This document shows positions 7,532 to 61,403 of a DNA stretch of 64,000 nucleotides, in pieces (position 1 is the stretch's first letter; each line of letters begins with the position of its first letter). Position numbers and translations under genes: made by a program. Under the pieces are notes generated by a model. That model searched no databases and was not told the origin of the DNA. It saw only the letters and a program-made list of their open reading frames with translations. The stretch is from a virus. The stretch covers positions 13,761 through 77,760 of IMG/VR virus record IMGVR_UViG_3300022843_000013; one strand, given 5' to 3'.

Positions 7532-9529
7532 TTATCGTGCGTAAAGGGACGACAAAGCTCGAAGCTGATCGGGAGAATTCATGACGTCGACGGCGGTCAT
7601 CGCACTTCCCATCATACCTGGACCCCGGGGTAACGTGGAAGGCTGCGCCTTGGGAGCCATGGCGCCCGTGCGAAACAGCGTGTCGTATATCCAGTCTCCC
7701 ATCTTCCCGTAAGAGGTCCGGTAGGCGCCCGGCGACGCGAATAACTTCGTAACCATCGGGCTATCGTTGACCCGCTGACCAGCGCCTGGCTTAAGAACCT
7801 TTATGCCTGGGGTTGGCGCGAGTCCTGGCGCGGGCGCGGCAGGACTCGCCGACTTGACGCGCTTGTGCAGCCTGTCTAGGCGCGAACTAGTCAGACGCTG
7901 GACAGCTGTCGCTTCGCCCCCTGACGCCTCAGCACTCAGCTCTCCCTTCTGCTTGGCTAGGTCGGCCTCGGCCTTCTGTCGCTCCATCTGGATCTTCAGG
8001 ATCTCGTTTTCCTGCGTCTTTTTTCCGAGCTCCATTTGGAACTTCTGCTGTTGCTCCATTTGCGCCTGCTGAGACTGCTGCTCCATGGCGGCCGCCTGCT
8101 GCGCCCCCTGTTGCTGAGCTTCCGTAGCTGCCTGCTCGGCTTTCATGATCTGCGGATTAGCGCCCGTCGAAGGAGGCATGGAGTTGGCTGTTGCTTGGCG
8201 CATAGCAGGGTTCTGTCCCGGTATGGGAGGAGTGGGGACGCCGGTGTTCGGGGGAGGAGGGGGAGCCATTCCCGCCTTCTCGGCGTAGATCGTCTCGACG
8301 CCGTTTTTGAAGGACGCGACCTTGGAGAGTTGTTGGTGCTCTCGGTCAATGTCCAGGTCCTCCTCTTCCCTCTCGTTAGGGTTGTCGGGGTCCTCGGGTT
8401 TTCGGGTTTTTGTGCGGGCCTTGGTTTCCGAAAGCAAGCGTCGTCGAGTGTCGCGGCCGATGCGCCCGCGAAGTGCGTTGGACAGGTTGATCTCCTCAAT
8501 AGGTATTTCCAGCTGAGTCTCGACGTCCCCCGGGTTCTTGGTTGGGAGGGTCACGCGGACTCTACCTTTACCGCTCTCGGCGATCGCCTTCTCCTGGTTA
8601 TCAGAATTCTTCTTGGCCTTGTAGGCTGCGATGGCGAGAGCTCCCAGGCCTAGGCCGCCCGCACCGAGAAGAAGACCCTTAGGGATTTTGTCCCACAGGT
8701 TGGATTCAGGCAAGGCAGGCGCGGCGTTCGCTTCATCTTTTTTTCTAGCGTCTATGTAGTCGACGAGAGACTCAGACACGTTATCGATCTTGTGCATCGT
8801 GGACTGCCCTTTTATCAGAGCGTCTTTAGCTGGTGCGAGGGCGAATGCTCCCAAGCTCGACAAAATACCGGCCTTGCCGTGCCGCGCAGCTGCGTATCCC
8901 GCGCTTGCGCCGATCGCGGCGTTCAGGCCTCCAATCAAAGATCTCTCTTTATCCCACCCAGAAGGGTCCAAGGTGCTATCAACAGTCCGACTGGCGTCGT
9001 TGGCTTGATCGTAGAATGCGACGGTACCGGCGGCGCCTAACCCGAGCGCCCCTGCTGTCCCCGCGTTATGCCGGGTGCGCGCCCACCCTTTCAAGGCTTT
9101 GGCGGCGCCCCCCGTCATGGCCACCTTCTCGATCACCGGGATCGATAGGGAGGCGGCCAGACTCTTGCTCGGGGCGTTGTGCGCCGCGATCAGCGCGCGG
9201 ACCTCGTCGACCTCGCCCGACTTGCAGCGTAGGACTTGCGCCACGGCCTGCTTAGCGAAGCCCTGCTCTCGGTGTTCCGGCAGAACTCCGATGGCGTAAT
9301 ACCCCACTTTTCTATCCCCCTCTTGTCGGGACTGCCACCCGACGAAGCCTACGGGCTCCGCGCCTGCCGCCTTAGATATCAGGTAGAGACCGCCCGGATC
9401 GAACTGATCCCTCGCAAGTCCGTAGGGCCAGTAAGACGGCTCTTCTCGGTAAATCCTACCCATAATACTCTCCGTAGTTGAGAGATCTTCCGAGCTGCTA
9501 GCCTTCTTGAACATGCATACGTTTAGCAC
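7532..9529 (-). CDS. GNAT acetyltransferase domain fused to a low-complexity, KxA-rich probable virion protein
   Basis: IGVLPEHREQGFAKQ (GNAT motif A) and HNAPS, followed by Gly/Ala/Gln/Pro-rich segments. Confidence 0.75.
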   Translation of the reverse strand: MLNVCMFKKASSSEDLSTTESIMGRIYREEPSYWPYGLARDQFDPGGLYLISKAAGAEPVGFVGWQSRQEGDRKVGYYAIGVLPEHREQGFAKQAVAQVLRCKSGEVDEVRALIAAHNAPSKSLAASLSIPVIEKVAMTGGAAKALKGWARTRHNAGTAGALGLGAAGTVAFYDQANDASRTVDSTLDPSGWDKERSLIGGLNAAIGASAGYAAARHGKAGILSSLGAFALAPAKDALIKGQSTMHKIDNVSESLVDYIDARKKDEANAAPALPESNLWDKIPKGLLLGAGGLGLGALAIAAYKAKKNSDNQEKAIAESGKGRVRVTLPTKNPGDVETQLEIPIEEINLSNALRGRIGRDTRRRLLSETKARTKTRKPEDPDNPNEREEEDLDIDREHQQLSKVASFKNGVETIYAEKAGMAPPPPPNTGVPTPPIPGQNPAMRQATANSMPPSTGANPQIMKAEQAATEAQQQGAQQAAAMEQQSQQAQMEQQQKFQMELGKKTQENEILKIQMERQKAEADLAKQKGELSAEASGGEATAVQRLTSSRLDRLHKRVKSASPAAPAPGLAPTPGIKVLKPGAGQRVNDSPMVTKLFASPGAYRTSYGKMGDWIYDTLFRTGAMAPKAQPSTLPRGPGMMGSAMTAVDVMNSPDQLRALSSLYAR

Positions 9530-9606
9530 TTTACTTGCGCTAGGTAAAGAGGAACACCAGCCGCCGTCAGGTATTCTGACGGCGGCGGTGAAAACTCCTG
9601 CTTTGA

Positions 9607-10791
9607 CTATTTTTCCGGTCCAGATGCGGGAGTCGCCTCCTGCATCTCGGGTGTTTGAGTGGCCGAGATTACGGCGTCTATTTTTTCGACCACTTCAGGG
9701 TCGGGTTGTGGCTCCGGCTTACCGAGCTTACGGCGAGGAGCTGCGGGGGTAACGCGTCTTGCCGCTGTCGGCGTAACTTCGGGGGATCCCTGAGGATTGA
9801 CGTGCGGCGCTGCGGGGGTGACCCGCTGCTCCGCTGCCGGATCAGGTTGCGGAGACTCCTGCGAAACGACGCGAGGAGCCCCGTGGTCCCTAGCTGGGAC
9901 CGAGCGAACCTGACGTCGACGATTTACGCGCTCCTTCTTCTTGGTCTCGCGAGTCTTGAGTTCTCGCACCACGAACGCCATGACCTCTGCGGGAGCGCGG
10001 AGTTCTGGAGTTCTAGGGACGTTCTTGTTGCGCCCCCCGAGGAGGTTCAAGGCCGCCACCGCCAAAGGCCAAGCGGTGGGGACAGCCTGCGCAACTTTCA
10101 CAGCGGTATCGGAGAGTCTAGCGCCGAAATCCCCAGACCCAGACCCCGGTACGTTTGCGACATCAAAGCGCGGACCCCACGTGGAGCTGAGGACATATTT
10201 CTCAGTGTTCTCCGTGTTGAGGTTACCCTTGTGGATAAATCGCCCCGAACGGTTAGGTCCGAATGTGATGACGCCGTAGCACCCTTTGTCCCACTCTTCG
10301 TCCGAGATACCAGACGCTGCGCGGACATACGCGCTGTAATACGGAATCTCACGGATCACGAACCTTGGGTCGTTACGGGGGTCCCCGTCTTTTTCCGATA
10401 TGTGCTCCACCTCGACGTCGGGCTGAATACCCTTCATGACGCCCTCTTTGAATAAGCGCTCCGGGCTCATGCTGTAGATCGTGGAGTTCGTGTAGCCTGG
10501 CCGCACCTCCCGGTCTTCCCGGTTCTCCAGCACGCGCATCGCGCCGCCGACGAAGGCGACGATTTTACTATCCGCGTCGTAGCGGACGAGAAGGAACCCA
10601 GACGTGCGCGACAGATGCAGCGCATGATACCGGGACCCTGGGTTAATGCTCAATCCCGCGCTTGCGGGTCCTTTATTGTCATGCTCAGCTGTGCCGACAT
10701 GGTTCCCGACGTCCTCGCGGACTGAATCGGGGGCTGAGGTTGTTGTTTTGACCTCAGCACACTTTTCGTCTACATTTAATATGTTGTCCAT
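9607..10791 (-). CDS. hypothetical protein with Pro/Ala-rich C-terminus
   Basis: 394-aa ORF with repeated RVTPAAP; shared upstream motif abuts the ATG. Confidence 0.65.
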   Translation of the reverse strand: MDNILNVDEKCAEVKTTTSAPDSVREDVGNHVGTAEHDNKGPASAGLSINPGSRYHALHLSRTSGFLLVRYDADSKIVAFVGGAMRVLENREDREVRPGYTNSTIYSMSPERLFKEGVMKGIQPDVEVEHISEKDGDPRNDPRFVIREIPYYSAYVRAASGISDEEWDKGCYGVITFGPNRSGRFIHKGNLNTENTEKYVLSSTWGPRFDVANVPGSGSGDFGARLSDTAVKVAQAVPTAWPLAVAALNLLGGRNKNVPRTPELRAPAEVMAFVVRELKTRETKKKERVNRRRQVRSVPARDHGAPRVVSQESPQPDPAAEQRVTPAAPHVNPQGSPEVTPTAARRVTPAAPRRKLGKPEPQPDPEVVEKIDAVISATQTPEMQEATPASGPEK

Positions 10792-12946: not shown

Positions 12947-14258
12947 CTAATCGGACTCCAGGGTTGGGTTCGGATTATCGAATGCCATAAACTCGTCCAC
13001 TGGGTCGTCTTCGGCGCCTTTGTTTATCTCGCCATCTCCCGCACCGCCAGACTCTTCCGACTCGGATGCCAGCACTCCTCCCGCGTCCGTCTGTAGCGCC
13101 TCCTCAATTTCTTTGGGTTGCTGCGACTTTAAGGTGTCCCGGAGCTGATCGGACGCCACAGAGTAAGACGCACCGGCCTTCACGAGATGAGGCCTGAACA
13201 TAACCGCGTGCATAAGAGCGCCAACACTGGCGAGCTTCTCTATAGCATCGGGGTCCTGCCGGGATACGGTGTCGTAGATATCGGGGGCCATGTCCTGATA
13301 CTCGGACGACGCCAAGACCGACGCGACAGGTCGAAGCTTGGCCGACTTGCATATCAGAGCGGCCGCTACCACTCTCCCTGGCAGGTCGGCGGGGCTATCG
13401 GACGCCCCCTTTACGATCTCAATGAGGGCCTCTAGGCCTCCGGCTTCGTAGGCATGCGCCATACCGCCAGTTCCGTGCTTCGCTGCCGCGTTGAGTAAGT
13501 CGGACGTCAGACTGATGCTGGCGCGCTTTTCTGTGGCCATCTGATCTGTCACGAGTAGAAGAAACTCGTCGCCGCATTCTTCGAAGTCTTTCTTGGCCGC
13601 GGCGGACTTGGGTAAGTATTCGTCGGTGACGTCCTCGATCTCCCCAGGCCCTGACACTTGCCGTATCCGCCTTGGTCCTTTAAGTCCGGGCCTCTTGATT
13701 GTCGGGAAGGTCTTGTTGAGGGCTGCGTAAGCTACGCCCCCGGAAGCCATAGCAGCCAACAACGGAACGGCCACGGGGAAGGCGAGCACCAGATCCGAGA
13801 ACGTCATCTTAGTATCCGCCGACTTTTCTATCTCAGCGTCAGAAAGCGCGATGGTCTCGTTCTGGGCCTCGTCGAGCATACGCTGCCTACGCTTCTTCAT
13901 CGCGAAATTATAAACCATCTGCGTCAGAGCATACGCACCGCCTGCTCCCACGACGCCTGCAGTTAGGCCAACACCGGGCGCCAGCCAATCTTTGGCTGTA
14001 GCAGACTTCTCCTTACCTGACGGCGGGGCTTGAATGTAGAGGGTGTCGTCATTGAGTCGAGACTCGTCATTCAACTCCTCCTCTTTTTTAAGGGACTTGA
14101 GGTAGTTGACCAGAGCGACAGCAGCACTTACTCCACCCCCAAGCATAAGACCGCCGGTGGCCAACTGACTTATGAGCTCGTCGCCCCGGTCAGGGGGCGT
14201 AGCAGGCGTAAAAGTTTTCTTTAGGCTGTCGGCGGCTTGATCGATAAAAGAGGGCATG
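12947..14258 (-). CDS. probable virion protein with multiple KxA motifs and hydrophobic segments (probable start MPSFIDQ)
   Basis: ORF 12947..14308 containing EKSAT, EKSAD, PKSAA, EKRAS and EKLAS. Confidence 0.6.
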
Positions 14259-19739: not shown

Positions 19740-20825
19740 CTAATCTGGTAATTTTAGTGTTTTGCCCTGTAGGTCGGTAGGGCTTACCCAAGATTTCTTA
19801 CCCGTGCGACGGTCGAGAAGCAACTGATAAATTTTACCATCGGACCCGATACGAGTCCCGTAAGCCAGTCGAACATCGATACCGGCCTTCTCAGAGTTGC
19901 CAGTCCAGTAGCATGCCGACTCGCAGCTGTCCCTGACAACCAAACGACCCCCCGGGACTGAAGCGCAGTAAACTAGACCGTCGTGATGCTCAGTGTGCCA
20001 GTCGTCGCCCGACACTCCGACGTGCGACACGCCCGATAGGCGAGGCAGCCACACGGGCAGTCCGTATAGTTTGCTTGCCGCTAGGACCAGCTCCTCTCCG
20101 TCGTTTCGATATAAATTTCCTATGACCCTGTGATTAGGCGTCACGGCCATGCGGACCTCGCTGTTCTCGACCACCAGAAGCTCTCCGGTGTAGTGCTCTC
20201 GCACGACACGCTCCGCGCGGTGCCACTCGATCTTATCGCTGCTCCCGCACGCGAATACTTCCGAGTCCTCAACGTCGCACCAGGGAACCCACCCACGCTC
20301 AGTGAATACCTCACTCTCCCCTGTCAGACACTCCGGTCCGGCAATGGTATCGATGAACCCAAACTGCGAAGCGCTAACAGCCTGCATGTCACCCGTAATA
20401 GCGTTGGGATCCCCGATGCCTCCGGGGCCCATTTTAGTAATTCGACGTTGCTGCTCCAAGATGTGCATCGGGTTAATCTCCTCCAGCGCTGGGACCAGGG
20501 GGTTACTTGTGATGTAGCCGGTCGTGTATTCTCCGAAGGTGTCCGGACCCATCGGATTCAGGTTCTTCGCGCGAGCCACGCGCCCCATCATCTTTCGTAG
20601 GACCTTTCCGTGATCCAACTTAACCCTCTCGGACATCAGTTGATCCACCATGTAGATGCGATCGTTGGGTAGCGAGTCTCGGTCATCAGTCTCCGCCAGT
20701 CCCCGGTTGACCGCTAGTAGCTTCTCCGACGCGGCAAGTAGACCGTCCACGCCGATAGACGAGTATGTTTCAAACTCGTCGTCGTCGGCGATATACTGAT
20801 GTCTCTGTTTTGATTTGGTGGTCAT
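19740..20825 (-). CDS. phage RNA polymerase beta subunit middle part, intein-containing
   Basis: EINPMHILEQQRRITKMGPGGI...QFGFIDTIAGPE (cf. RpoB [21 protein letters not shown]...YGRVCPIETPE); start MTTK at 20825 coupled to the upstream stop. Confidence 0.88.
   Translation of the reverse strand: MTTKSKQRHQYIADDDEFETYSSIGVDGLLAASEKLLAVNRGLAETDDRDSLPNDRIYMVDQLMSERVKLDHGKVLRKMMGRVARAKNLNPMGPDTFGEYTTGYITSNPLVPALEEINPMHILEQQRRITKMGPGGIGDPNAITGDMQAVSASQFGFIDTIAGPECLTGESEVFTERGWVPWCDVEDSEVFACGSSDKIEWHRAERVVREHYTGELLVVENSEVRMAVTPNHRVIGNLYRNDGEELVLAASKLYGLPVWLPRLSGVSHVGVSGDDWHTEHHDGLVYCASVPGGRLVVRDSCESACYWTGNSEKAGIDVRLAYGTRIGSDGKIYQLLLDRRTGKKSWVSPTDLQGKTLKLPD
19896..20330 (-). mobile_element. mini-intein (145 aa) in the RNAP beta middle fragment
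   Basis: PE|CLTGESEV..., block B VTPNH, VYCASVP, WTGN|S; no endonuclease domain. Confidence 0.88.
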
Positions 20826-22312
20826 TTTAAATCTTCGGGCTGTATGTATCCGTCTAGCGCCATCGCCATGAGTGCCCGGGGTGTAGGGACGCCCTCCTGC
20901 ATCTCGGCGCCTCTCTTGCCCGCTTTTAGGGATAGATTGATGGCGGCGTCGTCGTCGAAGTCGTGACGGTTCATGAACCACTTCACGAACTCCCCTCGGC
21001 GATACTTCTCCATCTCTTCTTCCACCTGCAGGGCTTTGTCTCCCGGTAGCATCTTCAGAGGGTCAATGCCCCAATTACGTAGCGCGAAAGCCCGTCGGGG
21101 CGTTGGCTTCGCTACGAATTGGGCACCATGCCGCGCCTTAAAGGACTTCCACCTCTTCTTCTGATGTTCGTCCGTCTCCCCGCGCTGCCCGTCGTGGTAT
21201 TTCTCATACCATTGCAGCCAACCCTTCTGGTTTTCGTCGTCTAGCCAGTGCTTGGGCCACTCGCGCATCGAGGCGAGCTGAGGTCCGTGGTTGCCGTAGA
21301 TTGAGTTGTACACCTCGCGCATCCCGTTCGGCTCAATATCGGGCTCGAATCCCGCAGCTTTTTCGACACCATCAAAAAACCCCACCCAGTCGTCGGATAC
21401 CTCGTCGGGAGACATGTCCGGGGCGAATGTCGCGGACGATCTCTTAATCATGTCCTGCGCTATTTGTATGACGGCTCCGGCCCTCCGCCAACTGGCGGCC
21501 TTCTCCTGGCTATACAGGTTGGGTAGGTTCCTTCGCATGATCGCGTCGGACACCTGCGCCCTGTCCATAGCCGCTCGAATGGCTGCTACCTTTTCGTCAA
21601 AAGGAAGTCCTTCGTCACGCTCCCACTTGGGAACAGACTTGCGGTAGGCCCGCGCGAGTGCGTGCTTTGAATATTTCGACTTGTTGGACGCAAGTATCTC
21701 CGGTCCCCACCTTCGAGAGAGCTCCTCGTCGGTCACTCCCAAGTCTCGAAAGATGGAGTAGGCGTGCAGGTCTGAGGATCCTATCTTTAATCTGTATTGC
21801 GCGGTGGTGGGTTCGAAGGACACTCGCATCGCGGAGCCCGTCCCCGGTCTCGTATTGAAGTGATTCTCGAGTTCCCCGTTGGCGCGCCTCCTGGCGTAGG
21901 TCCCCGGGAGAAGTCTAGACTGCGACACCGGACTAAACTCGCTCCCGTTGTTGATGAAGGTGTTACGCTCCGTTAAGTAGGGCACGCGGGCCAAGGTCAT
22001 GTTCTTCTTCGTGTCGAGGACCTTGTTGGTCTCCTCGTCCACCAACCTGACGGTCCCGCGGAGTCGGCGATGCAACAGGCTGTCAGACGCCTTGGCCTCT
22101 GCCTGATCTTTCAGGGAATACTCCTCCTTGTCGGTATACTTGAGGTCGACCAATTCTAGACGCACTCCGCCGTAGGAAAACCCGTTTGCGTAACGGTCCA
22201 TGGATTTCATTATGCCAGACTCTAAGGCCCTCCGCGTGGCGGTCGAGTCCTCTGGGTCACGTAGAGTCACCCCCGGGGGCGCTGATGGTTCGTCTTCCGG
22301 TATCACACCCAA
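20822..22312 (-). CDS. phage RNA polymerase beta subunit N-terminal part fused to an unrelated C-terminal domain
   Basis: LARVPYLTERNTFINNGSEFSPVSQSRLLPG (cf. RpoB [31 protein letters not shown]); C-terminal Trp-rich GWLQWY..Y..G.R...D..Q..RW..F domain. Confidence 0.85.
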   Translation of the reverse strand: MGVIPEDEPSAPPGVTLRDPEDSTATRRALESGIMKSMDRYANGFSYGGVRLELVDLKYTDKEEYSLKDQAEAKASDSLLHRRLRGTVRLVDEETNKVLDTKKNMTLARVPYLTERNTFINNGSEFSPVSQSRLLPGTYARRRANGELENHFNTRPGTGSAMRVSFEPTTAQYRLKIGSSDLHAYSIFRDLGVTDEELSRRWGPEILASNKSKYSKHALARAYRKSVPKWERDEGLPFDEKVAAIRAAMDRAQVSDAIMRRNLPNLYSQEKAASWRRAGAVIQIAQDMIKRSSATFAPDMSPDEVSDDWVGFFDGVEKAAGFEPDIEPNGMREVYNSIYGNHGPQLASMREWPKHWLDDENQKGWLQWYEKYHDGQRGETDEHQKKRWKSFKARHGAQFVAKPTPRRAFALRNWGIDPLKMLPGDKALQVEEEMEKYRRGEFVKWFMNRHDFDDDAAINLSLKAGKRGAEMQEGVPTPRALMAMALDGYIQPEDLK

Positions 22313-22560
22313 TGTATACCGCGACCCCGAGGGGTTGGCAACACCGATGCGTCATGCGAGCATTTTCTTAAAAAGGTCACCGGCGCCGCCCCCTGAGAGA
22401 ATCCAAGAGACCAAGCCAACACCACCCCCGCCACATATTCCCCCACCGGCGACGACAGTAGGCACAGAGCCAACAGAACCAACACCGCCCAAGAAATGAA
22501 GAAAGAGAGCAAGATTTGGGCGATACGGAATGCTTTTTTAGGTCGTTTTTCTCCGGTCAC
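22303..22560 (-). CDS. small membrane protein
   Basis: 85-aa ORF with two hydrophobic stretches. Confidence 0.55.
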   Translation of the reverse strand: MTGEKRPKKAFRIAQILLSFFISWAVLVLLALCLLSSPVGEYVAGVVLAWSLGFSQGAAPVTFLRKCSHDASVLPTPRGRGIHWV

Positions 22561-22562
22561 TT

Positions 22563-22610
22563 AACCCAGAAAGCCCGGCCAATTCAATGGTCCGAGCGGG
22601 CTTGGGTTGG
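22563..22610 (-). repeat. conserved intergenic hairpin CCGC(C/T)CGGACCATTGA(A/C)TTGG(C/A)CGGGC, copy 1
   Basis: Also at about 24150..24195 and 24420..24458; each copy lies just before a minus-strand start codon. Confidence 0.75.
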
Positions 22611-22616
22611 TATTGG

Positions 22617-22964
22617 CTACAGTCCCCCGTCAGAGTCGGGGACAATCTGCTCCATAATTGAGAGCAATAGATTCTCGGAAATCACTCCGTCTCGATACGC
22701 CTCGGAAATCTTAGCGTCCCCGACGATTATGCAATCTGACTTCTGATCTGGCATCACCATTAATGGGAGCCCGAGCAGAGTTGAAATAACTGGTGATGTT
22801 TCGGTTGTTGTTATTGATTCATATCTCACGACATTCATCGCTGAAGAACTTAAGAAGTAAATTCCTTTACGTTGGGGGATGTCGGCGATTTTTTGAATCA
22901 TGTCCGAAATGATATTCGGAGTAAGTGCGTCACAAGGAGATGAATCCAATTTTGTTTTACTCAT
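22617..22964 (-). CDS. hypothetical cassette-region protein
   Basis: 115-aa ORF starting inside a degenerate attC. Confidence 0.55.
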   Translation of the reverse strand: MSKTKLDSSPCDALTPNIISDMIQKIADIPQRKGIYFLSSSAMNVVRYESITTTETSPVISTLLGLPLMVMPDQKSDCIIVGDAKISEAYRDGVISENLLLSIMEQIVPDSDGGL

Positions 22965-23006
22965 GGTTTATTTTTATCTTTCGGTGGCAGGATGGAGGAG
23001 TTCTCT
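22928..23006 (+). repeat. degenerate attC-like site
   Basis: Left arm tCACaaggagatgaatccaa (AAC mutated); right arm ggcaggatggagga-GTTCTCT with crossover G at 23000. Confidence 0.5.
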
Positions 23007-23245
23007 CTAAGATTCCAGAAGTGCCCCGCTCCTTGTTCATTGGTTTCTAAGGTGCAGTGGCATTTCGTGCATCCAACGATGCAACTGGTGCGACGGTTTC
23101 CCAAGCGTTCAATTTTTGCCTCCCCACCGCAAAACGGACACGGCAGGAGAGAACAAGACGATGCAAAACAATCGCCAAGGCAAACGCTATGTGATCCACA
23201 CGCGGAGGGTGTGGGGCAGTCTTTATGTGGATCGAAGTCACTCAT
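22961..23245 (-). CDS. Lar-like (restriction alleviation) zinc-ribbon protein
   Basis: LLPCPFCGGEA...CTKCHC...WN pattern; ATG at 23245 overlaps the upstream TGA inside an attC. Confidence 0.7.
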   Translation of the reverse strand: MSDFDPHKDCPTPSACGSHSVCLGDCFASSCSLLPCPFCGGEAKIERLGNRRTSCIVGCTKCHCTLETNEQGAGHFWNLRENSSILPPKDKNKP

Positions 23246-23272
23246 GGCGATGTTTGATCTTGGTTGTTCATC
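23148..23272 (+). repeat. attC recombination site
   Basis: AGAGAAC-aagac-GATGCAAAACAATCGCCA ... TGGCGATGTTTGATC-ttggtt-GTTCATC; imperfect palindrome with extra bases in the left arm. Confidence 0.85.
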
Positions 23273-23775
23273 AAAGATGGCCAGTTGTCGGGATTCACAG
23301 CAGCCCACCAGATTACTTCTTCGGGGCACACGCCGGAATCGTCAAACGTGCCATCAAGTAGATTCAGGACCGAGTAGTGTTCATCGCATGACGTATCGAC
23401 GAGGATTGTTTTCTCTCCGTCGCTGTATTTTACGATTACTAAGATCCTTTCGCCGTCGCCCCAGAAGTAGCTTTCAGAATCGAAGTCTTCGTGCGCTGGT
23501 CCTTTACGCCATTCAAGCGGCTTCCTATCTGCTTCGATTGCAACGCTTTTCTCTTCATTCCTAGAATTGAGGAGCGCGGCTACCATAGTCGAGAAATGTG
23601 ACCCTAAAAAGTCAGCTTGAATCTCTTCTCCATTCTCTCCCATGGTAAACGAGAGAAAGCCGGGAATGTGCCCCGTGTCTGTGCAGTGGTCAGTCCAAGC
23701 GTCTTGGAGTGCCTCAGATAAGTCATCCTCGTCAATGAAGAGATCGCTTGATGTAGTCGTGGTTTTCATGTTCAT
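23242..23775 (-). CDS. hypothetical acidic protein
   Basis: 177-aa ORF ending NNQDQTSP* inside the attC right arm. Confidence 0.65.
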   Translation of the reverse strand: MNMKTTTTSSDLFIDEDDLSEALQDAWTDHCTDTGHIPGFLSFTMGENGEEIQADFLGSHFSTMVAALLNSRNEEKSVAIEADRKPLEWRKGPAHEDFDSESYFWGDGERILVIVKYSDGEKTILVDTSCDEHYSVLNLLDGTFDDSGVCPEEVIWWAAVNPDNWPSLMNNQDQTSP

Positions 23776-23829
23776 GATTTGTTAATTTTTTCGATAAAGT
23801 CAATTTGTAATTCTTCAGGCTCGCGCTTA

Positions 23830-24147
23830 TTAATCAGCGTGGAATATAGCAGATGCCAAGCATTGATTGGGGTGAATTCTTCCCTCATGGTCCAGCTCCC
23901 GCATCGGTGGGGTTGGGCTGACTTTGAGCGTCTCTACGGCGTAATGGATCTGGCACCCCGCTATGAACATGGATCCGATTTGAACATACCAATTTGTTGA
24001 CCCGCGGTTAGTTTTTATTCCGAGGGTTTGCTCATCAGACATGACCGCTTTTATGGTTCCAAATACGGCTCGGTAGCTTTCCCCGTCGGGGGCGATAAAC
24101 CATTCGTCTGTGGTTATTAGATATTTTTTTCCTATAGTCGGTTTCAT
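23830..24147 (-). CDS. hypothetical protein (start MKPTIGK)
   Basis: ORF directly downstream of hairpin repeat copy 2. Confidence 0.7.
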   Translation of the reverse strand: MKPTIGKKYLITTDEWFIAPDGESYRAVFGTIKAVMSDEQTLGIKTNRGSTNWYVQIGSMFIAGCQIHYAVETLKVSPTPPMRELDHEGRIHPNQCLASAIFHAD

Positions 24148-24149
24148 TT

Positions 24150-24195
24150 CACCAGCAATGCCCGGCCAAGTCAATGGTCCGGGCGGGTTGGTGGT
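24150..24195 (-). repeat. conserved intergenic hairpin, copy 2
   Basis: caccaccaacccgcccggaccattgacttggccgggcattgctggtg-aaATG. Confidence 0.75.
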
Positions 24196-24206
24196 GTTTC
24201 CTTAAA

Positions 24207-24416
24207 TTAAGTCATGACGTTAGGGTCAATTCCATCTACCCAAAAGGTTCTCGCTTTAGATACCTGGGAAAACCCGACACACATCAGGATTGAAAAAACC
24301 TCTCCTTCATGAGCTGAAGCTAATCGTTCAGCCTCGATCCGAGCACTAATAATCGTTTGGTGGCGGACTTGTGGCGATGTCCCCCCTTCGCGCAAGACGT
24401 AGTAATATGTTGTCAT
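24207..24416 (-). CDS. small hypothetical protein (start MTTYYY)
   Basis: P.VRH.T..SA..EAERLA..H.G..F pattern seen in small phage proteins; follows hairpin copy 3. Confidence 0.65.
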   Translation of the reverse strand: MTTYYYVLREGGTSPQVRHQTIISARIEAERLASAHEGEVFSILMCVGFSQVSKARTFWVDGIDPNVMT

Positions 24417-24419
24417 TTC

Positions 24420-24458
24420 GCCAGCAATGCCCGTCCAATTCAATGGTCCGGGCGGTTG
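24420..24458 (-). repeat. conserved intergenic hairpin, copy 3
   Basis: caaccgcccggaccattgaattggacgggcattgctggcg-aaATG. Confidence 0.75.
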
Positions 24459-24511
24459 TAACTGTCCGACGCTACGGACCCTCTTAGGGCCGAAGGTCAG
24501 GGGAGTTCGCA
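24456..24511 (+). repeat. short attC recombination site
   Basis: TTGTAAC-tgtcc-GACGCTACGGACCCT-ctt-AGGGCCGAAGGTC-agggga-GTTCGCA; two extra left-arm bases as in attC. Confidence 0.75.
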
Positions 24512-24966
24512 TCAGAAACAACGACCTCCGCCTTGAGTAGCTCGACCGTGTTCCTGAATGCGCGCTCCAACATCTCTGGCGTCATCTCCAAATCATAGAC
24601 GCTACCGCTCCGCGCCATCCCTGCCATCACGCAGTCCGATATGTATTCGATCACGTCGAGAAGATTCACATCCTCTGGCACTCCGTCCTCTTGTCCGAGA
24701 TGGTGTCGGTGAATCTTTCTATGATTGTCCCACCATCCAGTTTTCTCGAATCCTGTGATGAAGTCATCATGGAACCAGTCGATTGCCGTTAGCTTGTCGT
24801 AGTCGTGCTCCCCAGCGGCCTCGGTGAGTTTGCCGATGAAGAACGCCATGGCTTTTACTACGTCGCCGATATGGGTGCGACTGGAAGCTAAAAGCGTTTC
24901 CTTGGTGGTGTTGGCGTAGTCGCAGGTCCGTGTGTCTGCGGTGGCGGATTTGGTTATTGGTATCAT
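24484..24966 (-). CDS. HD-like His-rich protein (DUF5662-like)
   Basis: HIGDV, HDYDK, HRKIHRHH, LLDVIEYISDCVMAG; ends NSPDLRP* inside an attC. Confidence 0.65.
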   Translation of the reverse strand: MIPITKSATADTRTCDYANTTKETLLASSRTHIGDVVKAMAFFIGKLTEAAGEHDYDKLTAIDWFHDDFITGFEKTGWWDNHRKIHRHHLGQEDGVPEDVNLLDVIEYISDCVMAGMARSGSVYDLEMTPEMLERAFRNTVELLKAEVVVSDANSPDLRP

Positions 24967-24991
24967 AAAGGGTTTAGGTAATTCGGAAGAA

Positions 24992-25092
24992 TGCGAACAA
25001 GTCGGCGCTGGCAACAGATGCCAGCGGTGAAGTTTGGTTAGGAATCGGAGTCGGCTCCCGCTGGTAGCGGTGCCACACCTTGGACGTTCTCC
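24992..25092 (+). repeat. attC recombination site, apparently chimeric
   Basis: TGCGAAC-aagtc-GGCGCTGGCAACAGATGCCAGCGG ... CCGCTGGTAGCGGTGCCACACC-ttggac-GTTCTCC. Confidence 0.8.
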
Positions 25093-25106
25093 ATAGAAAT
25101 AACACA

Positions 25107-25403
25107 ATGAAAACCACCCAAGAAGTCTACGACGCCCTCGTGGCATACATGAACAAGTTCACCGAACCAGCGAGTTCCTGGTATGCAGGAATTGCAGCCG
25201 ATCCACGGGACAGATTGTTCAGCGATCATAATGTTAATGAAACGAATGGTCAGTGGGCGTTCGATACATGCTCAACAGACACTGACGCCAGAGCTGTCGA
25301 GGCCGCCATGTTGAAGCTCGGCTGCAAGGGCGGCGGCGGTGGCGGCGACCACACGACCAAGAGTTGTTATGTCTATTTTATCACCAACTCGACCGTCGAG
25401 TGA
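25107..25403 (+). CDS. cassette gene, small protein with a remote GIY-YIG-like pattern, copy 1
   Basis: ATG about 20 nt after the attC GTT; WYAGIAADPRDRLFSDH...ARAVE. Confidence 0.7.
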   Translation: MKTTQEVYDALVAYMNKFTEPASSWYAGIAADPRDRLFSDHNVNETNGQWAFDTCSTDTDARAVEAAMLKLGCKGGGGGGDHTTKSCYVYFITNSTVE

Positions 25404-25574
25404 TGGGCACGGAAACTCATGCGGGTGATTTTCGGCTGACATGACCTCGCCTGTCTCGACATCCACTGTCTCGATCCGAACAGATATTCTAGTTTTAATA
25501 TTCATTTTGTTTTTAGCGGTCTTGCATTCCGAACTCACCACTCAAAGGCAGGTGACGCCTAAGAAAATTAAGAA

Positions 25575-25703
25575 GGAGAACAAGACGGTGGTGGACAACC
25601 GCCACCAGCCCCACTGTTTACATGATCCTGCGTAGCCACAACCTCAACCCTGTTTTCGGAGTCGGCTCCCGCTGGTAGCGGTGCCACACCTTGGACGTTC
25701 TCC
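25575..25703 (+). repeat. attC recombination site
   Basis: GGAGAAC-aagac-GGTGGTGGACAACCGCCACCAGC ... GCTGGTAGCGGTGCCACACC-ttggac-GTTCTCC. Confidence 0.85.
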
Positions 25704-25717
25704 ATAGAAATAACACA

Positions 25718-26014
25718 ATGAAAACCACCCAAGAAGTCTACGACGCCCTCGTGGCATACATGAACAAGTTCACCGAACCAGCGAGTTCCTGGTATGCAGG
25801 AATTGCAGCCGATCCACGGGACAGATTGTTCAGCGATCATAATGTTAATGAAACGAATGGTCAGTGGGCGTTCGATACATGCTCAACAGACACTGACGCC
25901 AGAGCTGTCGAGGCCGCCATGTTGAAGCTCGGCTGCAAGGGCGGCGGCGGTGGCGGCGACCACACGACCAAGAGTTGTTATGTCTATTTTATCACCAACT
26001 CGACCGTCGAGTGA
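25718..26014 (+). CDS. cassette gene, identical copy 2
   Basis: Identical to 25107..25403. Confidence 0.7.
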   Translation: MKTTQEVYDALVAYMNKFTEPASSWYAGIAADPRDRLFSDHNVNETNGQWAFDTCSTDTDARAVEAAMLKLGCKGGGGGGDHTTKSCYVYFITNSTVE

Positions 26015-26178
26015 TGGGCACGGAAACTCATGCGGGTGATTTTCGGCTGACATGACCTCGCCTGTCTCGACATCCACTGTCTCGATCCGAACAGATATTC
26101 TAGTTTTAATATTCATTTTGTTTTTAGCGGTCTTGCATTCCGAACTCACCACTCAAAGGCAGGTGACGCCTAAGAAAA

Positions 26179-26574
26179 TTAAGAAGGAGAACAAGACGGT
26201 GGTGGACAACCGCCACCAGCCCCACTGTTTACATGATCCTGCGTAGCCACAACCTCAACCCTGTTTTCGGAGTCGGCTCCCGCTGGTAGCGGTGCCACAC
26301 CTTGGACGTTCTCTGGGGAAAATAAAAGACCTGACATCAAGACCGGAACGTGACCGTTGCCCGAAAATAGCGTCGAGTCCCCGGGTGCGTAATCATCAAA
26401 CCAAACGCACAGACCGCGCTCGGGGTGATCATATATCTCTATTGGTTGCTCGCCGTCGTAATCCCTGCCGTCAGCGTTCGAAACTGTCCAGAAACCAGAG
26501 AACAAGGCATCGCTGCCAATGACTACCGCGTCGGAGTTATTGGCGATTTCGGAGTTATTTTGCGCGGTATTCAT
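26179..26574 (-). CDS. hypothetical protein that starts in one attC and reads through the next
   Basis: MNTAQNNSE...GSDALFS is attC-encoded; C-terminus ENVQGVAP...SCSPS comes from the next attC. Confidence 0.55.
   Translation of the reverse strand: MNTAQNNSEIANNSDAVVIGSDALFSGFWTVSNADGRDYDGEQPIEIYDHPERGLCVWFDDYAPGDSTLFSGNGHVPVLMSGLLFSPENVQGVAPLPAGADSENRVEVVATQDHVNSGAGGGCPPPSCSPS
26186..26314 (+). repeat. attC recombination site
   Basis: Identical to 25575..25703 except that it continues GTTCTCTGG. Confidence 0.85.
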
Positions 26575-26595
26575 GGTAGGATTTAAGCGTTCGCG
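26497..26595 (+). repeat. attC recombination site
   Basis: AGAGAAC-aaggc-ATCGCTGCCAATGACTACCGCG ... CGCGGTATTCATGGTAGGAT-ttaagc-GTTCGCG. Confidence 0.85.
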
Positions 26596-26596
26596 C

Positions 26597-26827
26597 TTAG
26601 AACCAGCGCCAGTTTTGAGGCATCGTTTGCCATTCAAATCTCATTTGCTTTGCCGCACAACCGCTTGGCCGGTATGCTGGGTCTTTTGCGTAAACTGGGT
26701 GGGGTTTAATCGCCAGCCTCCTCACTAAAAGCCAACGGACGGAGCGAACAAGGCGATGATGATACGCCCTTAATCGTTGGAACTTTTGGGGCGTGGCGGT
26801 AGTTGGTGGTGATTCTTGCGTGTTCAT
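26597..26827 (-). CDS. small hypothetical protein
   Basis: 76-aa ORF coupled to the recQ stop; HHRLVR is encoded by an attC left arm. Confidence 0.45.
   Translation of the reverse strand: MNTQESPPTTATPQKFQRLRAYHHRLVRSVRWLLVRRLAIKPHPVYAKDPAYRPSGCAAKQMRFEWQTMPQNWRWF
26743..26770 (+). repeat. truncated attC (left arm only)
   Basis: AGCGAAC-aaggc-GATGATGATACGCCC; no matching right arm before recQ. Confidence 0.55.
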
Positions 26828-28542
26828 CGATTCAAGTGTTGTTCCAGAAACGTGTGCTTCATGTCGTCTGACTGGTTCGCGTAAGTCAAAACCAGCTGCA
26901 GATCGGCCTCGGCGGACCTAGCCTTGTCGTCGAGCCGTCGGAATGCCTCCGCCGGGATGTCATCGGGTGACAGGCCCAGCCTGAGGGGCTTTGAAGTCGA
27001 CGGCCTAACCCACTCGATCTTACCGTCGCTGCTCATCTTACGCAGATGGCCGGCTACCGTCTGGGGCGCCCGACTGAGTTGCTCGGCCAGCTCGTCCAAG
27101 TTTATCTGAACCCACCCGTCATCCCCTTCCAATCCGATATCATAAATGGCGTCTCGCGCTTTCTTGTCCGTAGGAGTGAGGGACGGAATGTTCTCAGCGA
27201 AACGGACGCGTGACTTGCGTGCGGCACTCTCGTCATTAATGAACATGCGTTCGCCGTGGCAGAAAGCCATTATCGACTGCACCGCGAATGTATCGACGCC
27301 AGCTTGTCGGGCTATGTCGTCACGCTTCGCCGTAATAATACCGCTGGATCCCTCGCGCATACTCTTGGCTGCGGCCCAGAATTTCCGTATGTCTTCCTGG
27401 GACGGACTACCGCATCGGATGAAGTGTCGCTGCGTGCGAACGCCCTCCTTGGTCGGAATAATCGTGCAGAAAGAATCCGCACCGTCCCGACCTGCGCGCC
27501 CGAACTCTTGCGTGTAAGCCACTAGCGTCCCTGGTATGTCGAAGTGGACTACGGACCTAATGTCGCCCTTGTCTACGCCCATACCGAAGGCGCACGTGGC
27601 TACGATGATAGCGTCCGGAGACGCCATGAACTTGTCCTGCTGGTAAGTTCGATCTTTCGTGGACATCTTTCCGTGGTAGAACAGGATGTCCCGATCTGTG
27701 TAAGACTGCAGGGTGGACGCGTAGAGCTCCACGCGCTTTGTAGTGGACGCGTAAACAATCGTCGCCCCCGGGCAGTTCTCAAGCAACCATTGATACTGGT
27801 CGGATTGATTTTCGGTGAATAGGGACGACAGGTGCAGGTTAGTCCGTCTCGGGTAGTGGTAGATTAACTCCGCCCCCTCGATACCAAGACCGGCTCGGCA
27901 TTCAGCCTCAGCGTCGGACGAGAGCGTAGCTGAGAAAGCTGCGACAACTTTGGGAGCGACGTCCTGAATCATGAGGCCCGCGGACTTATAGCCGGGACGG
28001 AAGGTGTCGGCCCAGTCCGCGAATGTGTGGCACTCGTCGAGGGCTACGAAATCAGGAGGATACTGTCGCACCACGTTAGCCCACTCCGGGTTGGCGAATC
28101 GCTCCGGGGAGACGAGCATAAACTGCAGGTCGCCCGCCGCCCAATCCCGGAGGACCGAAGCGTTGTGCCCGTCAGTCTCGGCGCTGGATATCGTCGCAGC
28201 GGCCAGTCCTTTGCGCTGCATCGAGGTTGACTGATCCCTCATCAGGGCGATAAGCGGGTATATGATGATAGTCTTCCACCCCATGCACAACGTGGGGACC
28301 ACGAAGCATGCGGACTTACCTAAGGAAGTCGGCAGTATCACCACGGAATCTCGGCCCGTCATGATGGATTTGACCGCGCGGTCCTGACCTGGTCGGAGGC
28401 TTTCGAACCCGAGTTGATTCAGGACGTAGGGCATCTTCTTCATACCCTCTGCATATGCTTTCACTTGACCCATGGTAGCGACTTCTTTTCTAGATTCGAT
28501 CTTGATGTCTTTCGACGATGTTTTTTTTACAGCTGGTGGCAT
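26824..28542 (-). CDS. recQ: RecQ-family DNA helicase
   Basis: LRPGQ, LPTSLGKS, PLIALMRDQ, SPER, DECH..W...FRP.Y, SAT, AFGMGVDK, QEFGRAGRDG. Confidence 0.93.
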   Translation of the reverse strand: MPPAVKKTSSKDIKIESRKEVATMGQVKAYAEGMKKMPYVLNQLGFESLRPGQDRAVKSIMTGRDSVVILPTSLGKSACFVVPTLCMGWKTIIIYPLIALMRDQSTSMQRKGLAAATISSAETDGHNASVLRDWAAGDLQFMLVSPERFANPEWANVVRQYPPDFVALDECHTFADWADTFRPGYKSAGLMIQDVAPKVVAAFSATLSSDAEAECRAGLGIEGAELIYHYPRRTNLHLSSLFTENQSDQYQWLLENCPGATIVYASTTKRVELYASTLQSYTDRDILFYHGKMSTKDRTYQQDKFMASPDAIIVATCAFGMGVDKGDIRSVVHFDIPGTLVAYTQEFGRAGRDGADSFCTIIPTKEGVRTQRHFIRCGSPSQEDIRKFWAAAKSMREGSSGIITAKRDDIARQAGVDTFAVQSIMAFCHGERMFINDESAARKSRVRFAENIPSLTPTDKKARDAIYDIGLEGDDGWVQINLDELAEQLSRAPQTVAGHLRKMSSDGKIEWVRPSTSKPLRLGLSPDDIPAEAFRRLDDKARSAEADLQLVLTYANQSDDMKHTFLEQHLNR

Positions 28543-35535: not shown

Positions 35536-36224
35536 CGTTGTGTTCAGCCTAGCTCGTTAAGCTAAGCCCGCCACGTTTGGTGACAGCTGCAGTTTATTTA
35601 TTATGTCTGCAGACCAGACTATATCATGACCCGACGCGTGCCGGGTCCCTACTATTTCGAACCACTTGGTTCTACTCCCTTTCGGGATAGTCGTTGCACG
35701 TTCCGCCATGCGGCGGCTTCGCTCAGGATTGCCTTCGAAAAGGGTTCCCCTGAATTAAATAGGTTTGCTTTAATCATTACTGATTAAAGGGGCGAGTTTT
35801 AGACAAACTAATTCGCGGACCTCGGCAAAGGTGGCGCGATAACGGATTCGGATAAGTTTTAAGCCGTTCTCCTTGGCGTATTCATTCTTTCTTCGGTCGT
35901 GCTCTTTCAAGTTCTTAGTGTCGAAGTATGTGTCAGGTCCTTCTTGGTAATGCTGCTCCCCGTCTGCCTCTACCAAGGTTTGACAACCTGCGATGTAGAA
36001 GTCGTAGCGTAGAGGTAGGCGCTCGGACGCGCCTAGCAGTCCTCTAAGTTTAGGTTATTCACCTTACCCCGCTCTGCGGGCGTGCACACCCCGCAATAGC
36101 GCTTCTGCCGCATGACAGCGGCACTTACTTCTGTGAATGTGTTGCCGCACATCTCACAATCTTTCTCTAATACTTCCATTACAGCACCCTAAGCGGATGC
36201 TTTTGTTTGTCTACGAAAATTTTC
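35536..36224 (-). mobile_element. group I intron (689 nt) in the DNA polymerase gene
   Basis: Exon 1 ends in U (ACG GGT|) and the intron ends in G (|AGA). Core-like elements GGCAATCCTGAGCGAAGC, GTGCAACGACTATC and ATGATATAGTCTGG. Splicing restores TETG-RTRSWMPN in frame. Confidence 0.88.
35770..36179 (-). pseudogene. degenerate intron-encoded endonuclease (Vsr/DUF559-like)
   Basis: LRYDFY...LVEADGEQHY...HDRRKNEYAKENGLKLIRIRY; the upstream Cys-rich start (MEVLEKDCEMCG) is separated by a frameshift or stop. Confidence 0.7.
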
Positions 36225-45583: not shown

Positions 45584-46740
45584 CGAGTCGGCGTTTCTGT
45601 TTAAAAGAAGAACGAACCGGGGCGATCGTTGCACAACGCAAAACCGCGTTATTGGTGAAGCAACGGCTGTTGCATTTACGTAAGTCCATAGTAATCAAGG
45701 TCTTAAACGTTGTAAAACCACAAAACCCGATCCCTACGTGCGTGTATGCGTATTATTGTTTTTCTACGCGGAGGATCGGGTTTTGTGGTTTTACAACGTT
45801 TAAAGAACTACACGACAGTGCGTTATGAAGATGTAATATCCGTTGCTAACGCGTTTACGTGAAAACGCACCTACAAACATTACCCCGGAATCGACTACTT
45901 TGTAATGTCTGTGTGATTACTTTGTAAATATTCTTTGCGCATCCGGTAGACTAGGGACCGAGACACCCCGGGCAGTTCCGTCTTGCTACGCCCCTATCTA
46001 GGTCGAAGTCCGTGAAGCTGAATGCCCGGCAACCCTTGCGATGCGGTTTAATGCTCCCAGCAGCCTCTGCACGGAGCCGCGCGGCTACATTGCTACAAAC
46101 TCCGGTCTCAGCCATGATCTCTGCGTGTGGGCGCCCTCACTACTCCCGGGAAGTATGTCAGTTCGAGACTCGTCGATCTCGTGAGATTTGCGAGTCGGCG
46201 TTTCTGTTTAAAAGAAGAACGAACCGGGGCGATCGTTGCACAACGCAAAACCGCGTTATTGGTGAAGCAACGGCTGTTGCATTTACGTAAGTCCATAGTA
46301 ATCAAGGTCTTAAACGTTGTAAAACCACAAAACCCGATCCCTACGTGCGTGTATGCGTATTATTGTTTTTCTACGCGGAGGATCGGGTTTTGTGGTTTTA
46401 CAACGTTTAAAGAACTACACGACAGTGCGTTATGAAGATGTAATATCCGTTGCTAACGCGTTTACGTGAAAACGCACCTACAAACATTACCCCGGAATCG
46501 ACTACTTTGTAATGTCTGTGTGATTACTTTGTAAATATTCTTTGCGCATCCGGTAGACTAGGGGCCGAGACACCCCGGTCAATTCCATGATCTTTTTAGT
46601 GCTCAGGGACTTCCAGTCTAGGTCGAAGTCCGTGAAGCTGAATGCCCGGCGACCCTTGCGGTGCGGTTTAATGCTCGCAGCAGCCTCTGCACGGAGCCGC
46701 ACGGCTACATTGCTACAAACTCCGGTCTCAGTCATGATCG
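45584..46740. repeat. 607-bp-period tandem duplication containing a perfect 31-bp inverted repeat; candidate origin or regulatory region
   Basis: 45584-45955 repeats at 46191-46562, then the copies diverge; IR arms at 45703-45733 and 45773-45803, repeated at +607. Confidence 0.85.
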
Positions 46741-50884: not shown

Positions 50885-50921
50885 CCGGAAGCTGGGGGTC
50901 GGACCCAGCTTCCGGGTGGCT

Positions 50922-51473: not shown

Positions 51474-51575
51474 GACGCATCCTTGTGCGGGTCGGTATTT
51501 TTAACAAGAGGCAATACGTGCTAGTTAAAACACTCAACCAGCGGGCCCTGGCTAGGGCCCGCTGGTGCGAGATGC

Positions 51576-61315: not shown

Positions 61316-61403
61316 AGTTTTTAATAGGTTTGTTGTGGTAGGTAACGAACGTGCCCTGGCGCCTCCGCGTGAGAGGCGCTAGGGCACGTTCGTTTAAATA
61401 AAA

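Follow-up and report, generated by a model that had tools for sequence, protein, structure and literature searches.

A predicted integrase-less integron cassette array with largely reversed cargo in a jumbo-type salt-lake phage

Introduction

The virus record IMGVR_UViG_3300022843_000013, 77,760 bp long and judged 42% complete, carries a block of small genes between a RecQ-like helicase gene and the gene for an RNA-polymerase beta piece, and several of these small genes begin or end within inverted repeats resembling attC, the recombination site of integron gene cassettes. The window analysed here is the whole 64,000-nt stretch from base 13761 to base 77760 of that record, and positions are counted from its first base. 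An earlier note, made from the sequence alone, had described the small genes as cassette genes read antisense to attC sites that would serve them as start and stop modules. Here, five sites in the block are identified by a covariance model as attC sites, the cassettes between them are delimited, and the starts, stops and codon phases of the genes are placed relative to the recombination crossovers.

Results

A lineage-specific insert between two conserved phage genes

The long open reading frames (ORFs) of the window lie nearly all on the minus strand, and its content includes phage RNA-polymerase beta pieces, i.e. a split polymerase, together with a group I intron and one tRNA. The insert resides in a jumbo-type, virulent-type phage from a salt lake, whose complete relatives measure 184-200 kb. 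Relatives of the left-flanking polymerase piece were found at 50-67% identity on contigs of up to 200 kb, and ten related viral loci have a RecQ-like helicase gene 50-900 nt away from the polymerase gene. In the window the same pair is separated by 4.5 kb, and none of the intervening genes of 22306-26823 was found in the flanks of the relatives' helicase/polymerase loci. Given this adjacency in the relatives and the absence there of the intervening genes, sequence comparison identifies 22306-26823 as a lineage-specific 4.5-kb insert between two conserved genes. The insertion site holds other small inserts in two relatives. Among deposited phages no DNA relatives were found, protein searches against them returned only distant helicase and polymerase matches, and a helicase scan of viral contigs gave no useful matches.

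Five attC sites on the + strand

The bacterial homology search of the attC sites covered site b, which is present twice in the insert (b1 and b2, Table 1). Site b showed ~86% column identity to sites in four bacterial metagenome-assembled genome contigs, assigned to Pirellulaceae, Planctomycetaceae, Blastochloridaceae and Spartobacteria, where the homologues lie 5-17 nt behind Glyoxalase-family, RibD_C and MerC genes and also on both sides of a 198-aa ORF. The bacterial cargo is always on the strand equal to the + strand of the window, which is the model strand, and the R' boxes of these homologues (GTTAGGC, GTTAGAA) agree with the published consensus; no ATGA motif is present in them. The alignment of site b contains a 26-pair stem (20+6) with three unpaired bases on the AAC arm. 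As the strand with the extra bases on its AAC arm is the top strand (Nivina 2016, PMC5027507), the unpaired bases and the bacterial cargo strand together indicate that the top strand of the window sites is +. Over all hits, nine pairs were changed on both sides compared with 2.4 +/- 1.2 in shuffles, none of 500 shuffles scoring as high, and 94.6% of cells were paired vs 24-58% with partners slid, in an alignment that was fitted to the model, which favours structure.

A covariance model, R1, was built from the bacterial homologues and one window copy. It detects five attC sites in the insert, every one on the + strand, and its alignment runs end to end with all five, each of which has the attC architecture. 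The spacers are 5 nt after R'' and 6 nt before R' in all five, like those of the plasmid R46 sites. In attC a, R'' (AGAGAAC) and the spacer AAGAC are followed by a 15-bp stem with 3 extra bases on the AAC arm, the spacer TTGGTT and R' (GTTCATC); the stem is kept via compensatory changes, and the unpaired bases stand at the same places as in the model. Site a scores only ~29 bits against the model of b, i.e. the two are not near-identical copies. The corresponding elements of attC c are R'' AGAGAAC, spacer AAGGC, an imperfect 18-bp stem with 2 extra bases on the AAC arm (inverted repeat 26519-26530 / 26563-26574), spacer TTAAGC and R' GTTCGCG, while attC b0 is chimeric, with a diverged left half and a right 47 nt identical to the b copies. 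Furthermore, the 11-mer GAGAACAAGRC occurs in four copies, all in the insert and on the + strand, with none elsewhere in the 77.7-kb record, and relative to the minus-strand ORFs these copies fall in three different reading frames. By sequence and predicted structure, the insert sites are therefore classed as integron-type attC sites with + as their top strand.

Beyond these five sites the evidence is partial. The fragment at 26743-26782 holds a one-mismatch copy of the 11-mer and scores a non-significant 5.9 bits (E 2.2) with R1, and no attC was detected to the left of 24505. A second box at 26875 was rejected as a coincidence located in conserved helicase sequence. No Rfam family matched the region, even at E 1, and a local-fold scan of the entire window was uninformative; a fixed-geometry attC finder recovered one of four control sites. 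The boxes were also considered as weak terminators, a reading rejected as the clear terminators of the phage look different, and as parts of elements like miniature inverted-repeat transposable elements, likewise rejected, as sites a, b and c have no more than boxes and structure in common and no target duplications were seen.

Members of the attC family in L033-L036 have arms identical over >20 nt; their contigs are binned to Planctomycetota, Verrucomicrobiota and Alphaproteobacteria, and each member lies behind a different cargo gene. This spread suggests wide cassette traffic, or may be a hint to the host of the phage. One of these bacterial loci, L035, holds another array with GAAC/GTTC-type boxes. 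Scans of viral contigs with the attC-b peptide and the attC-b arm gave no useful matches.

Cassette units

A hallmark of integron cassettes, full complementarity (7/7) between the seven bases at the left crossover and the cassette's own R'', is present in five cassettes of the insert, both boxes having been fixed beforehand by the model in three of the five; the background in the window is 42 such pairs among 6666. The crossovers of the two 98-aa gene cassettes are 611 nt apart, which equals the repeat spacing, and the tandem duplication is thus exactly one cassette. Metagenome contig depth over this duplication is ~2x that of its neighbours. The 98-aa gene is canonical + strand cargo with a GIY-YIG-like fold, as judged from its Atlas neighbours (template-modelling score, TM, 0.80-0.95). 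The same cassette also has a short minus-strand ORF, MNIKTRISV... (25404-25505 and 26015-26116), of mildly coding codon usage; it has a terminator-like hairpin on one side and, on the other, the 3' end of the 98-aa gene, into which it extends. Taken together, the predicted sites and units identify the insert as an integron-type cassette array without an integrase, i.e. a cluster of attC sites lacking integron integrases (CALIN), with at least five attC sites.

Antisense genes with starts, stops and a fixed codon phase at attC

Three of the cargo genes (Lar-like, 131-aa and HD-like) are encoded by the bottom strand and share the direction of phage transcription; their identity as cargo was established by minus-strand homology. 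The canonical rule that cargo is on the attC top strand, upstream of attC, holds only for the duplicated 98-aa gene. The Lar-like gene consists of a 32-aa leader in attC a, a zinc-ribbon core corresponding to the 141-nt cargo, and a 12-aa tail past the crossover. There is no in-frame start in the 141-nt cargo, the sole start being ATG 23245 in the inner 3' arm of attC a; typical Lar proteins begin 3-8 residues before the CPFCGG motif. The 131-aa gene reads through all of attC b2, because site b has no CCATGA motif, and the bottom strand of b2 thereby becomes its 45-aa tail.

The 177-aa, Lar-like, HD-like and 131-aa genes have no stop before the crossover and all run past it. In each of these four boundary-crossing genes the crossover AAC is an in-frame Asn codon with the exchange point after its second base, and the chance of four equal crossing phases is ~1 in 27. 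The motif CCATGA is in phase with the crossover codon in attC a, in attC c and in the unconfirmed site e, and there the incoming frame stops on the TGA where the next gene starts. Stop/start overlaps of the form ATGA are found at 22961-22964, 23242-23245, 23772-23775 and 26824-26827.

These results partly confirm what the earlier note had observed, and the pattern goes well beyond chance. Read from the sequence, the genes of 22300-26830 nearly all share the minus strand with the phage genes on either side, and the peptides that it quoted are correct. It had placed two ATGA overlaps inside attC sites: that at 23242-23245 does lie in attC a, but that at 22961-22964 lies in site e. Similarly, four genes had been said to start inside attC, which is upheld for 23245 (attC a) and 26574 (attC c), but not for 22964, where there is no R1 hit and the fold has z +1.2, or for 26827, where only an attC fragment is present. 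As for genes said to end in a neighbouring attC, the frame ending NNQDQTSP does stop inside attC a and the ENVQGVAP... frame passes through the entire 26186-26314, whereas the ENSSILPP... and NSPDLRP frames stop past the 23000 and 24505 crossovers but not in a model-confirmed attC. The proposed inverted cassette format agrees with the data for the Lar-like, 131-aa and HD-like genes, which are antisense to the textbook layout according to the R1 strand, the unpaired bases and the bacterial cargo strand.

Among the remaining properties of the minus-strand genes, the HD-like gene scores best in the region for codon usage (+0.32), and its DUF5662 match is weak (E 0.009, below the cut-off). The 177-aa protein found only itself in a protein search. 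The 115-aa gene has no relatives and no Pfam or PHROG match, and the 76-aa ORF, which matches no Pfam or PHROG family, is probably not a gene.

Mosaic homologues and metagenome variants

Homologues in other assemblies show breaks at the boxes; for P0122, P0124, P0128, P0131 and P0144 the box sequences were deduced from peptides only. P0122 shares the 32-aa leader and the Lar core as far as ...FWNLREN, beyond which it carries a different 59-residue tail; it diverges exactly at the R' box of site e, a box with 7/7 complementarity to the R'' at 23148. In P0124 the leader (91% identity) is retained as far as ...ASSCS and precedes an unrelated cysteine-rich body; P0123 is also among the homologues of the Lar-like gene. 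Relatives of the 131-aa protein are of two types, namely proteins of 66-86 aa that align with residues 18-86 and stop 3-8 residues past the body, and ORFs that match the 45-aa tail alone and run through bacterial attC sites. In P0144 a 131-aa-type body is fused in frame to the next small gene, and three family members at 54-58% identity keep a leader ending in the box-encoded LF[SA]G. The earlier note had expected reshuffling to swap C-termini or to create in-frame fusions, and had pointed to Lar-like homologues as a place to look for variable attC-derived termini: a swapped tail is seen in P0122 and a fusion in P0144, P0124 shares the leader, and the mosaics P0122 and P0124 break at boxes. 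Its interpretation is to this extent partly supported.

The 131-aa family also has more distant members, found in metagenome contigs L037-L044; these genes stand alone outside arrays, with their own start and stop, and R1 had no hits in these contigs. A scan of viral contigs for the 131-aa family and a scan of metagenome contigs for the leader gave no useful matches, and the Lar hits in viral contigs are ordinary Lar genes with neither leader nor boxes.

In the comparison with metagenome contigs, only stretches with contig cover were used as evidence, and no RNA run was found to contain the stretch. Contigs of four salt-lake runs diverge from the window at 24509, 24998, 26192, 26306 and 26500/26503, each at a box. 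The break points by run are 24509 in X24, right after 24998 in X19 and X24, after 26192 in X21, before 26306 in the X22 record, and 26500 and 26503, within attC c, in three runs. Those at 24509 and 26306, like the divergence at 23000, are at R' boxes and are compatible with exchange between the second and third bases of the AAC triplet (AA/C). The same foreign sequence follows two different cassettes, and none of the loose-end sequences was found in the window or in the fetched loci.

Other features of the locus

Coordinates are collected in Table 1. The block 23273-24504 holds four small ORFs, three of which are headed by a separate 53-nt hairpin repeat, and no attC was detectable in it. Each copy of the repeat heads a small gene, whose (A/G)TGA start forms the end of the repeat at a constant relative position; the outer stem of copy 1 differs from that of copy 2, yet both stems still pair. 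A contig from run X24 joins 24185 to 24454, the 69-aa gene between copies 2 and 3 being deleted. A scan with the hairpin repeat gave no useful matches.

Relatives L002-L008 have in common a promoter-like motif before the polymerase gene, ATTGCAA-N17-TA(A/G)(A/G)A(G/A) (e.g. L003:9930-10020), the second hexamer of which ends 6-10 nt before the polymerase GTG or ATG; this suggests that their polymerase messages may be nearly leaderless. At the same place the window has a hairpin repeat and the 85-aa ORF coupled by GTGA instead. The helicase gene of some relatives (L008-L011, ~7814-8718) is split by ~900 nt resembling the intein-like insert of the window's second polymerase piece (19740-20981), and the group I intron of the window lies at 35597-35815. 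Between genes there are perfect hairpins of very high strength, with 13-22 bp in the stem and in most cases no T run (61344-61395, 50879-50921, 51505-51585, 9541-9610); they are probably terminators of the phage. A second exact tandem duplication, of low GC and with 607-nt spacing, occupies 45584-46490; each copy contains a perfect 31-bp inverted repeat (45703-45733 / 45773-45803 and 46310-46340 / 46380-46410), and a further 123-nt repeat is present at 45997 and 46617.

Table 1. Features of the insert and its two flanking genes, in order along the window
Feature	Position	Strand	Remarks
RNA-polymerase beta piece, left flank	20822-22312	-	GTGA coupling to 85-aa ORF 22303-22560
53-nt hairpin repeat, not attC	22557-22609, 24144-24196, 24413-24465		core CGGACCATTGAMTTGGNCGGGC on minus strand
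115-aa gene	22617-22964	-	ATG in unconfirmed site e; codon score +0.10
Putative eroded attC e	22926-23006	+	only R' box GTTCTCT (23000-23006) supported as crossover
Lar-like gene, 94 aa	22961-23245	-	Pfam Lar_restr_allev E 2.7e-7, residues 33-80; PHROG 599
Lar cassette	left crossover 23000 / own R'' 23148		266 nt
attC a	23148-23272	+	R1 29.5 bits, E 2e-6; inverted repeat; DNA fold z -2.3
177-aa gene	23242-23775	-	last 7 codons and stop inside attC a; codon score +0.20
Two small genes, 105 aa (PHROG 22562) and 69 aa	23830-24416	-	each headed by a 53-nt hairpin repeat copy
HD-like gene, 160 aa	24484-24966	-	start 26 nt outside attC b0; stop 6 codons past 24505 crossover
R'-type crossover box GTTCGCA, left end of HD-like cassette	24505-24511	+	7/7 complementary to R'' at 24992
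HD-like cassette	left crossover 24505 / own R'' 24992		581 nt
attC b0, of HD-like cassette	24992-25092	+	R1 46.5 bits, E 1e-10; R'' TGCGAAC
98-aa gene cassettes, two copies	left crossover 25086 / own R'' 25575 and 25697 / 26186		611 nt each
Tandem 611-bp cassette, two copies	25087-26308	+	98-aa gene (25107-25403, 25718-26014) and attC b in each
attC b1, of first 98-aa gene cassette copy	25575-25703	+	R1 134 bits; R'' GGAGAAC, R' GTTCTCC
attC b2, second copy	26186-26314	+	R1 133.5 bits; entire bottom strand read as 45-aa tail of 131-aa gene
131-aa gene	26179-26574	-	ATG 26574 in attC c; ~62-aa body with conserved YDHPxxGLCVW; 26-aa leader in attC c
131-aa gene cassette	left crossover 26308 / own R'' 26497		281 nt
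attC c, of 131-aa gene cassette	26497-26595	+	R1 12.9 bits, E 0.037; fold z -2.6
76-aa ORF	26597-26827	-	codon score -0.13; no frame there looks coding
attC fragment	26743-26782	+	R'' AGCGAAC, spacer AAGGC, 5' arm only; RecQ end of array
RecQ-like helicase gene, right flank	26824-28542	-	59-65% identical in relatives, adjacent to polymerase gene there

Discussion

The insert is probably a CALIN-type array of reversed, frame-locked cargo, in which attC hairpins supply the heads and tails of genes and which would support translational coupling and integrase-mediated exchange. The attC of each reversed gene lies in front of that gene, and the Lar-like and 131-aa bodies, which have no start of their own, would take their ATG from the inner 3' arm of their own attC, while four genes would read the crossover AAC as Asn and end in whatever adjoins. 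Transcription would take place within the phage operon, and ribosomes entering a hairpin may melt it and re-initiate at the overlapping ATG, as for the short ORFs of class 1 attC sites. Cassettes could be exchanged at AA/C by an integron integrase of the host that acts on the bottom strand in its folded form; as the crossover phase is fixed, exchange would alter only the C-terminal tail or yield an in-frame fusion. A broader proposal, that phages keep a mirror-image cassette consisting of a body without start or stop behind an attC whose bottom strand has a universal CCATGA stop/start motif in fixed phase with the Asn-encoding crossover, so that any order would be translatable and host integrases could swap the units as a general means of anti-defence reshuffling in virulent phages, is put forward only tentatively and leans towards the doubtful.

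Several observations weigh against a frame-locked CALIN. No PF00589 match, which would mark an integron integrase or another tyrosine recombinase, was found in the 77.7-kb record, itself 42% complete, and no tyrosine recombinase was found in two complete relatives, which are also without such attC sites. The 47 nt shared by b0 and the b copies suggest that this step was a homologous exchange and not the work of an integrase, and several variant break points fall on the R'' box, which is not an expected place for integron recombination. The window boxes (GGAGAAC, AGAGAAC, TGCGAAC / GTTCTCC, GTTCGCG, GTTCATC) depart from GTTRRRY/RYYYAAC, no strict RYYYAAC...GTTRRRY pair is present in the region, and class 1 attC sites fold more strongly as single strands (z -3.1 to -5.5) than the sites here (z -0.9 to -2.9). 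Among the sites themselves, attC c is marginal by the R1 model, site e has neither an R1 match nor a fold, and sites e and d, together with the stretch left of 24505, are not confirmed as attC. Finally, ATGA overlaps occur genome-wide, e.g. at 20822-20825 between polymerase genes, and are not special to attC, and codon usage is non-coding in the Lar-like leader (-0.49) and in the 45-aa tail of the 131-aa gene (-0.45).

The last two points would fit a passive passenger, i.e. a captured piece of a bacterial array in which the ORF/attC overlaps reflect compaction and missing stops, leaders and tails are either not needed or not translated, and no feature is an adaptation to the phage. The 45-aa tail has as its only homologues gene-caller ORFs that run through bacterial attC sites and overlap real genes on the opposite strand, and the identical phase of the four crossings could arise by chance at the frequency given above. 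This explanation is nevertheless judged unlikely: the Lar core has no possible start except the ATG in attC, its leader is reused on the unrelated body of P0124, and the LF[SA]G leader end is kept in three members of the 131-aa family. Moreover, three of the four cargo genes point the same way as the phage operon, although an antisense direction is foreign to textbook cassettes, and the bacterial site-b homologues lack the ATGA motif. A still simpler view, of an ordinary block of phage accessory genes with chance inverted repeats and no recombination sites, is scarcely credible. It draws on the missing strict box pair, on loose AAC...GTT pairs that are not enriched (8 vs 5.6 +/- 2.5 in shuffles) and on folds of 131-nt windows centred on the claimed starts that are no better than shuffles. 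Those windows cut the sites in half, however, and with correct ends the sites do fold, while the strict box search, applied to plasmid R46 with its class 1 integron as a control, finds only two of the four attC sites there. This view is refuted by the model hits, the homologues in bacteria, the covariation and the complementarity within cassettes.

Recombination of a non-integron kind, by another phage or host enzyme, or by an integrase on the top strand, acting on GAAC/GTTC cores in either orientation and letting bodies and hairpins assort independently, is considered very improbable. Under it one could readily understand why identical cargo and R'' are followed by different sequence at 26192, 26503 and 24998 (runs X21, X22, X19 and X24), why one new sequence follows two different cassettes, and why the boxes depart from the integron consensus and no integrase was found; top-strand recombination at R'' is rare but possible (PMC5027507). 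Short metagenome contigs cannot display entire alternative arrays, however, and the site b family occurs in ordinary bacterial arrays with consensus R' boxes. The GAAC/GTTC type is also that of the bacterial array L035, and integron cassettes have the same 5/6-nt spacers, unpaired bases and R'/R'' complementarity.

Clusters of attC sites without an integrase have been published from phage genomes, and their sites work with IntI1 (Qi et al. 2023, PMC9892861). The present array resembles these in that attC sites and cassettes occur in a virulent-type phage genome without an integron integrase, and in its anti-restriction cargo, which is a Lar-like protein here and methyltransferases there. It differs in its jumbo-type salt-lake phage and GTTC-type R boxes, and the published arrays have the usual gene direction or divergent sites, with no attC-antisense cargo, attC-internal starts or fixed crossover phase (PMC9892861). 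With classical cassettes it shares the order R''-spacer-L''...L'-spacer-R', the AAC/GTT bases, which are the only invariant bases of the boxes, unpaired bases on one arm, complementarity to the own R'' and the AA/C crossover (Nivina 2016, PMC5027507). It differs from them in that most cargo is on the bottom strand, no integrase or attI was found and the boxes are not GTTRRRY. According to Nivina et al. 2016 (PMC5027507), no cassette has been seen to face the promoter, but here it is the cargo within the cassette that is reversed, not the cassette itself.

In class 1 integrons, short ORFs such as ORF-11 and those internal to attC keep ribosomes on the message and melt the hairpin, and the next cassette is translated by termination and re-initiation (review PMC8876359). 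A reading frame inside the recombination site is common to both systems, in the present case as predicted from sequence alone; there it is on the top strand and encodes a separate short peptide, whereas here it is on the bottom strand and forms the tail of one gene and the head of the next. Apparently, attC-antisense cargo, starts in a gene's own attC and a fixed crossover codon phase have not been described together, no such description having been found in the literature.

In T4-type phages, promoter-early stem-loop (PeSL) elements are near-identical direct repeats through which small genes are shuffled by homologous recombination. The insert is similar in being a hyperplastic site of small accessory genes bounded by repeated hairpins, and its 53-nt repeat behaves in this way; the attC sites, in contrast, vary in sequence and resemble one another in structure and short boxes.

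The usual view of integrons is of bacterial devices in which a single promoter drives promoterless cassettes in one direction; here genuine cassettes appear to be read the opposite way. The only gene with a predicted function in the array belongs to the Lar family, pointing to restriction alleviation. If functional, the arrangement could allow phages to trade small accessory genes with bacterial cassette pools and with one another while their operons stay intact, and it would add a route for cassette traffic between distant bacteria, as the attC family is present in Planctomycetota, Verrucomicrobiota and Alphaproteobacteria.

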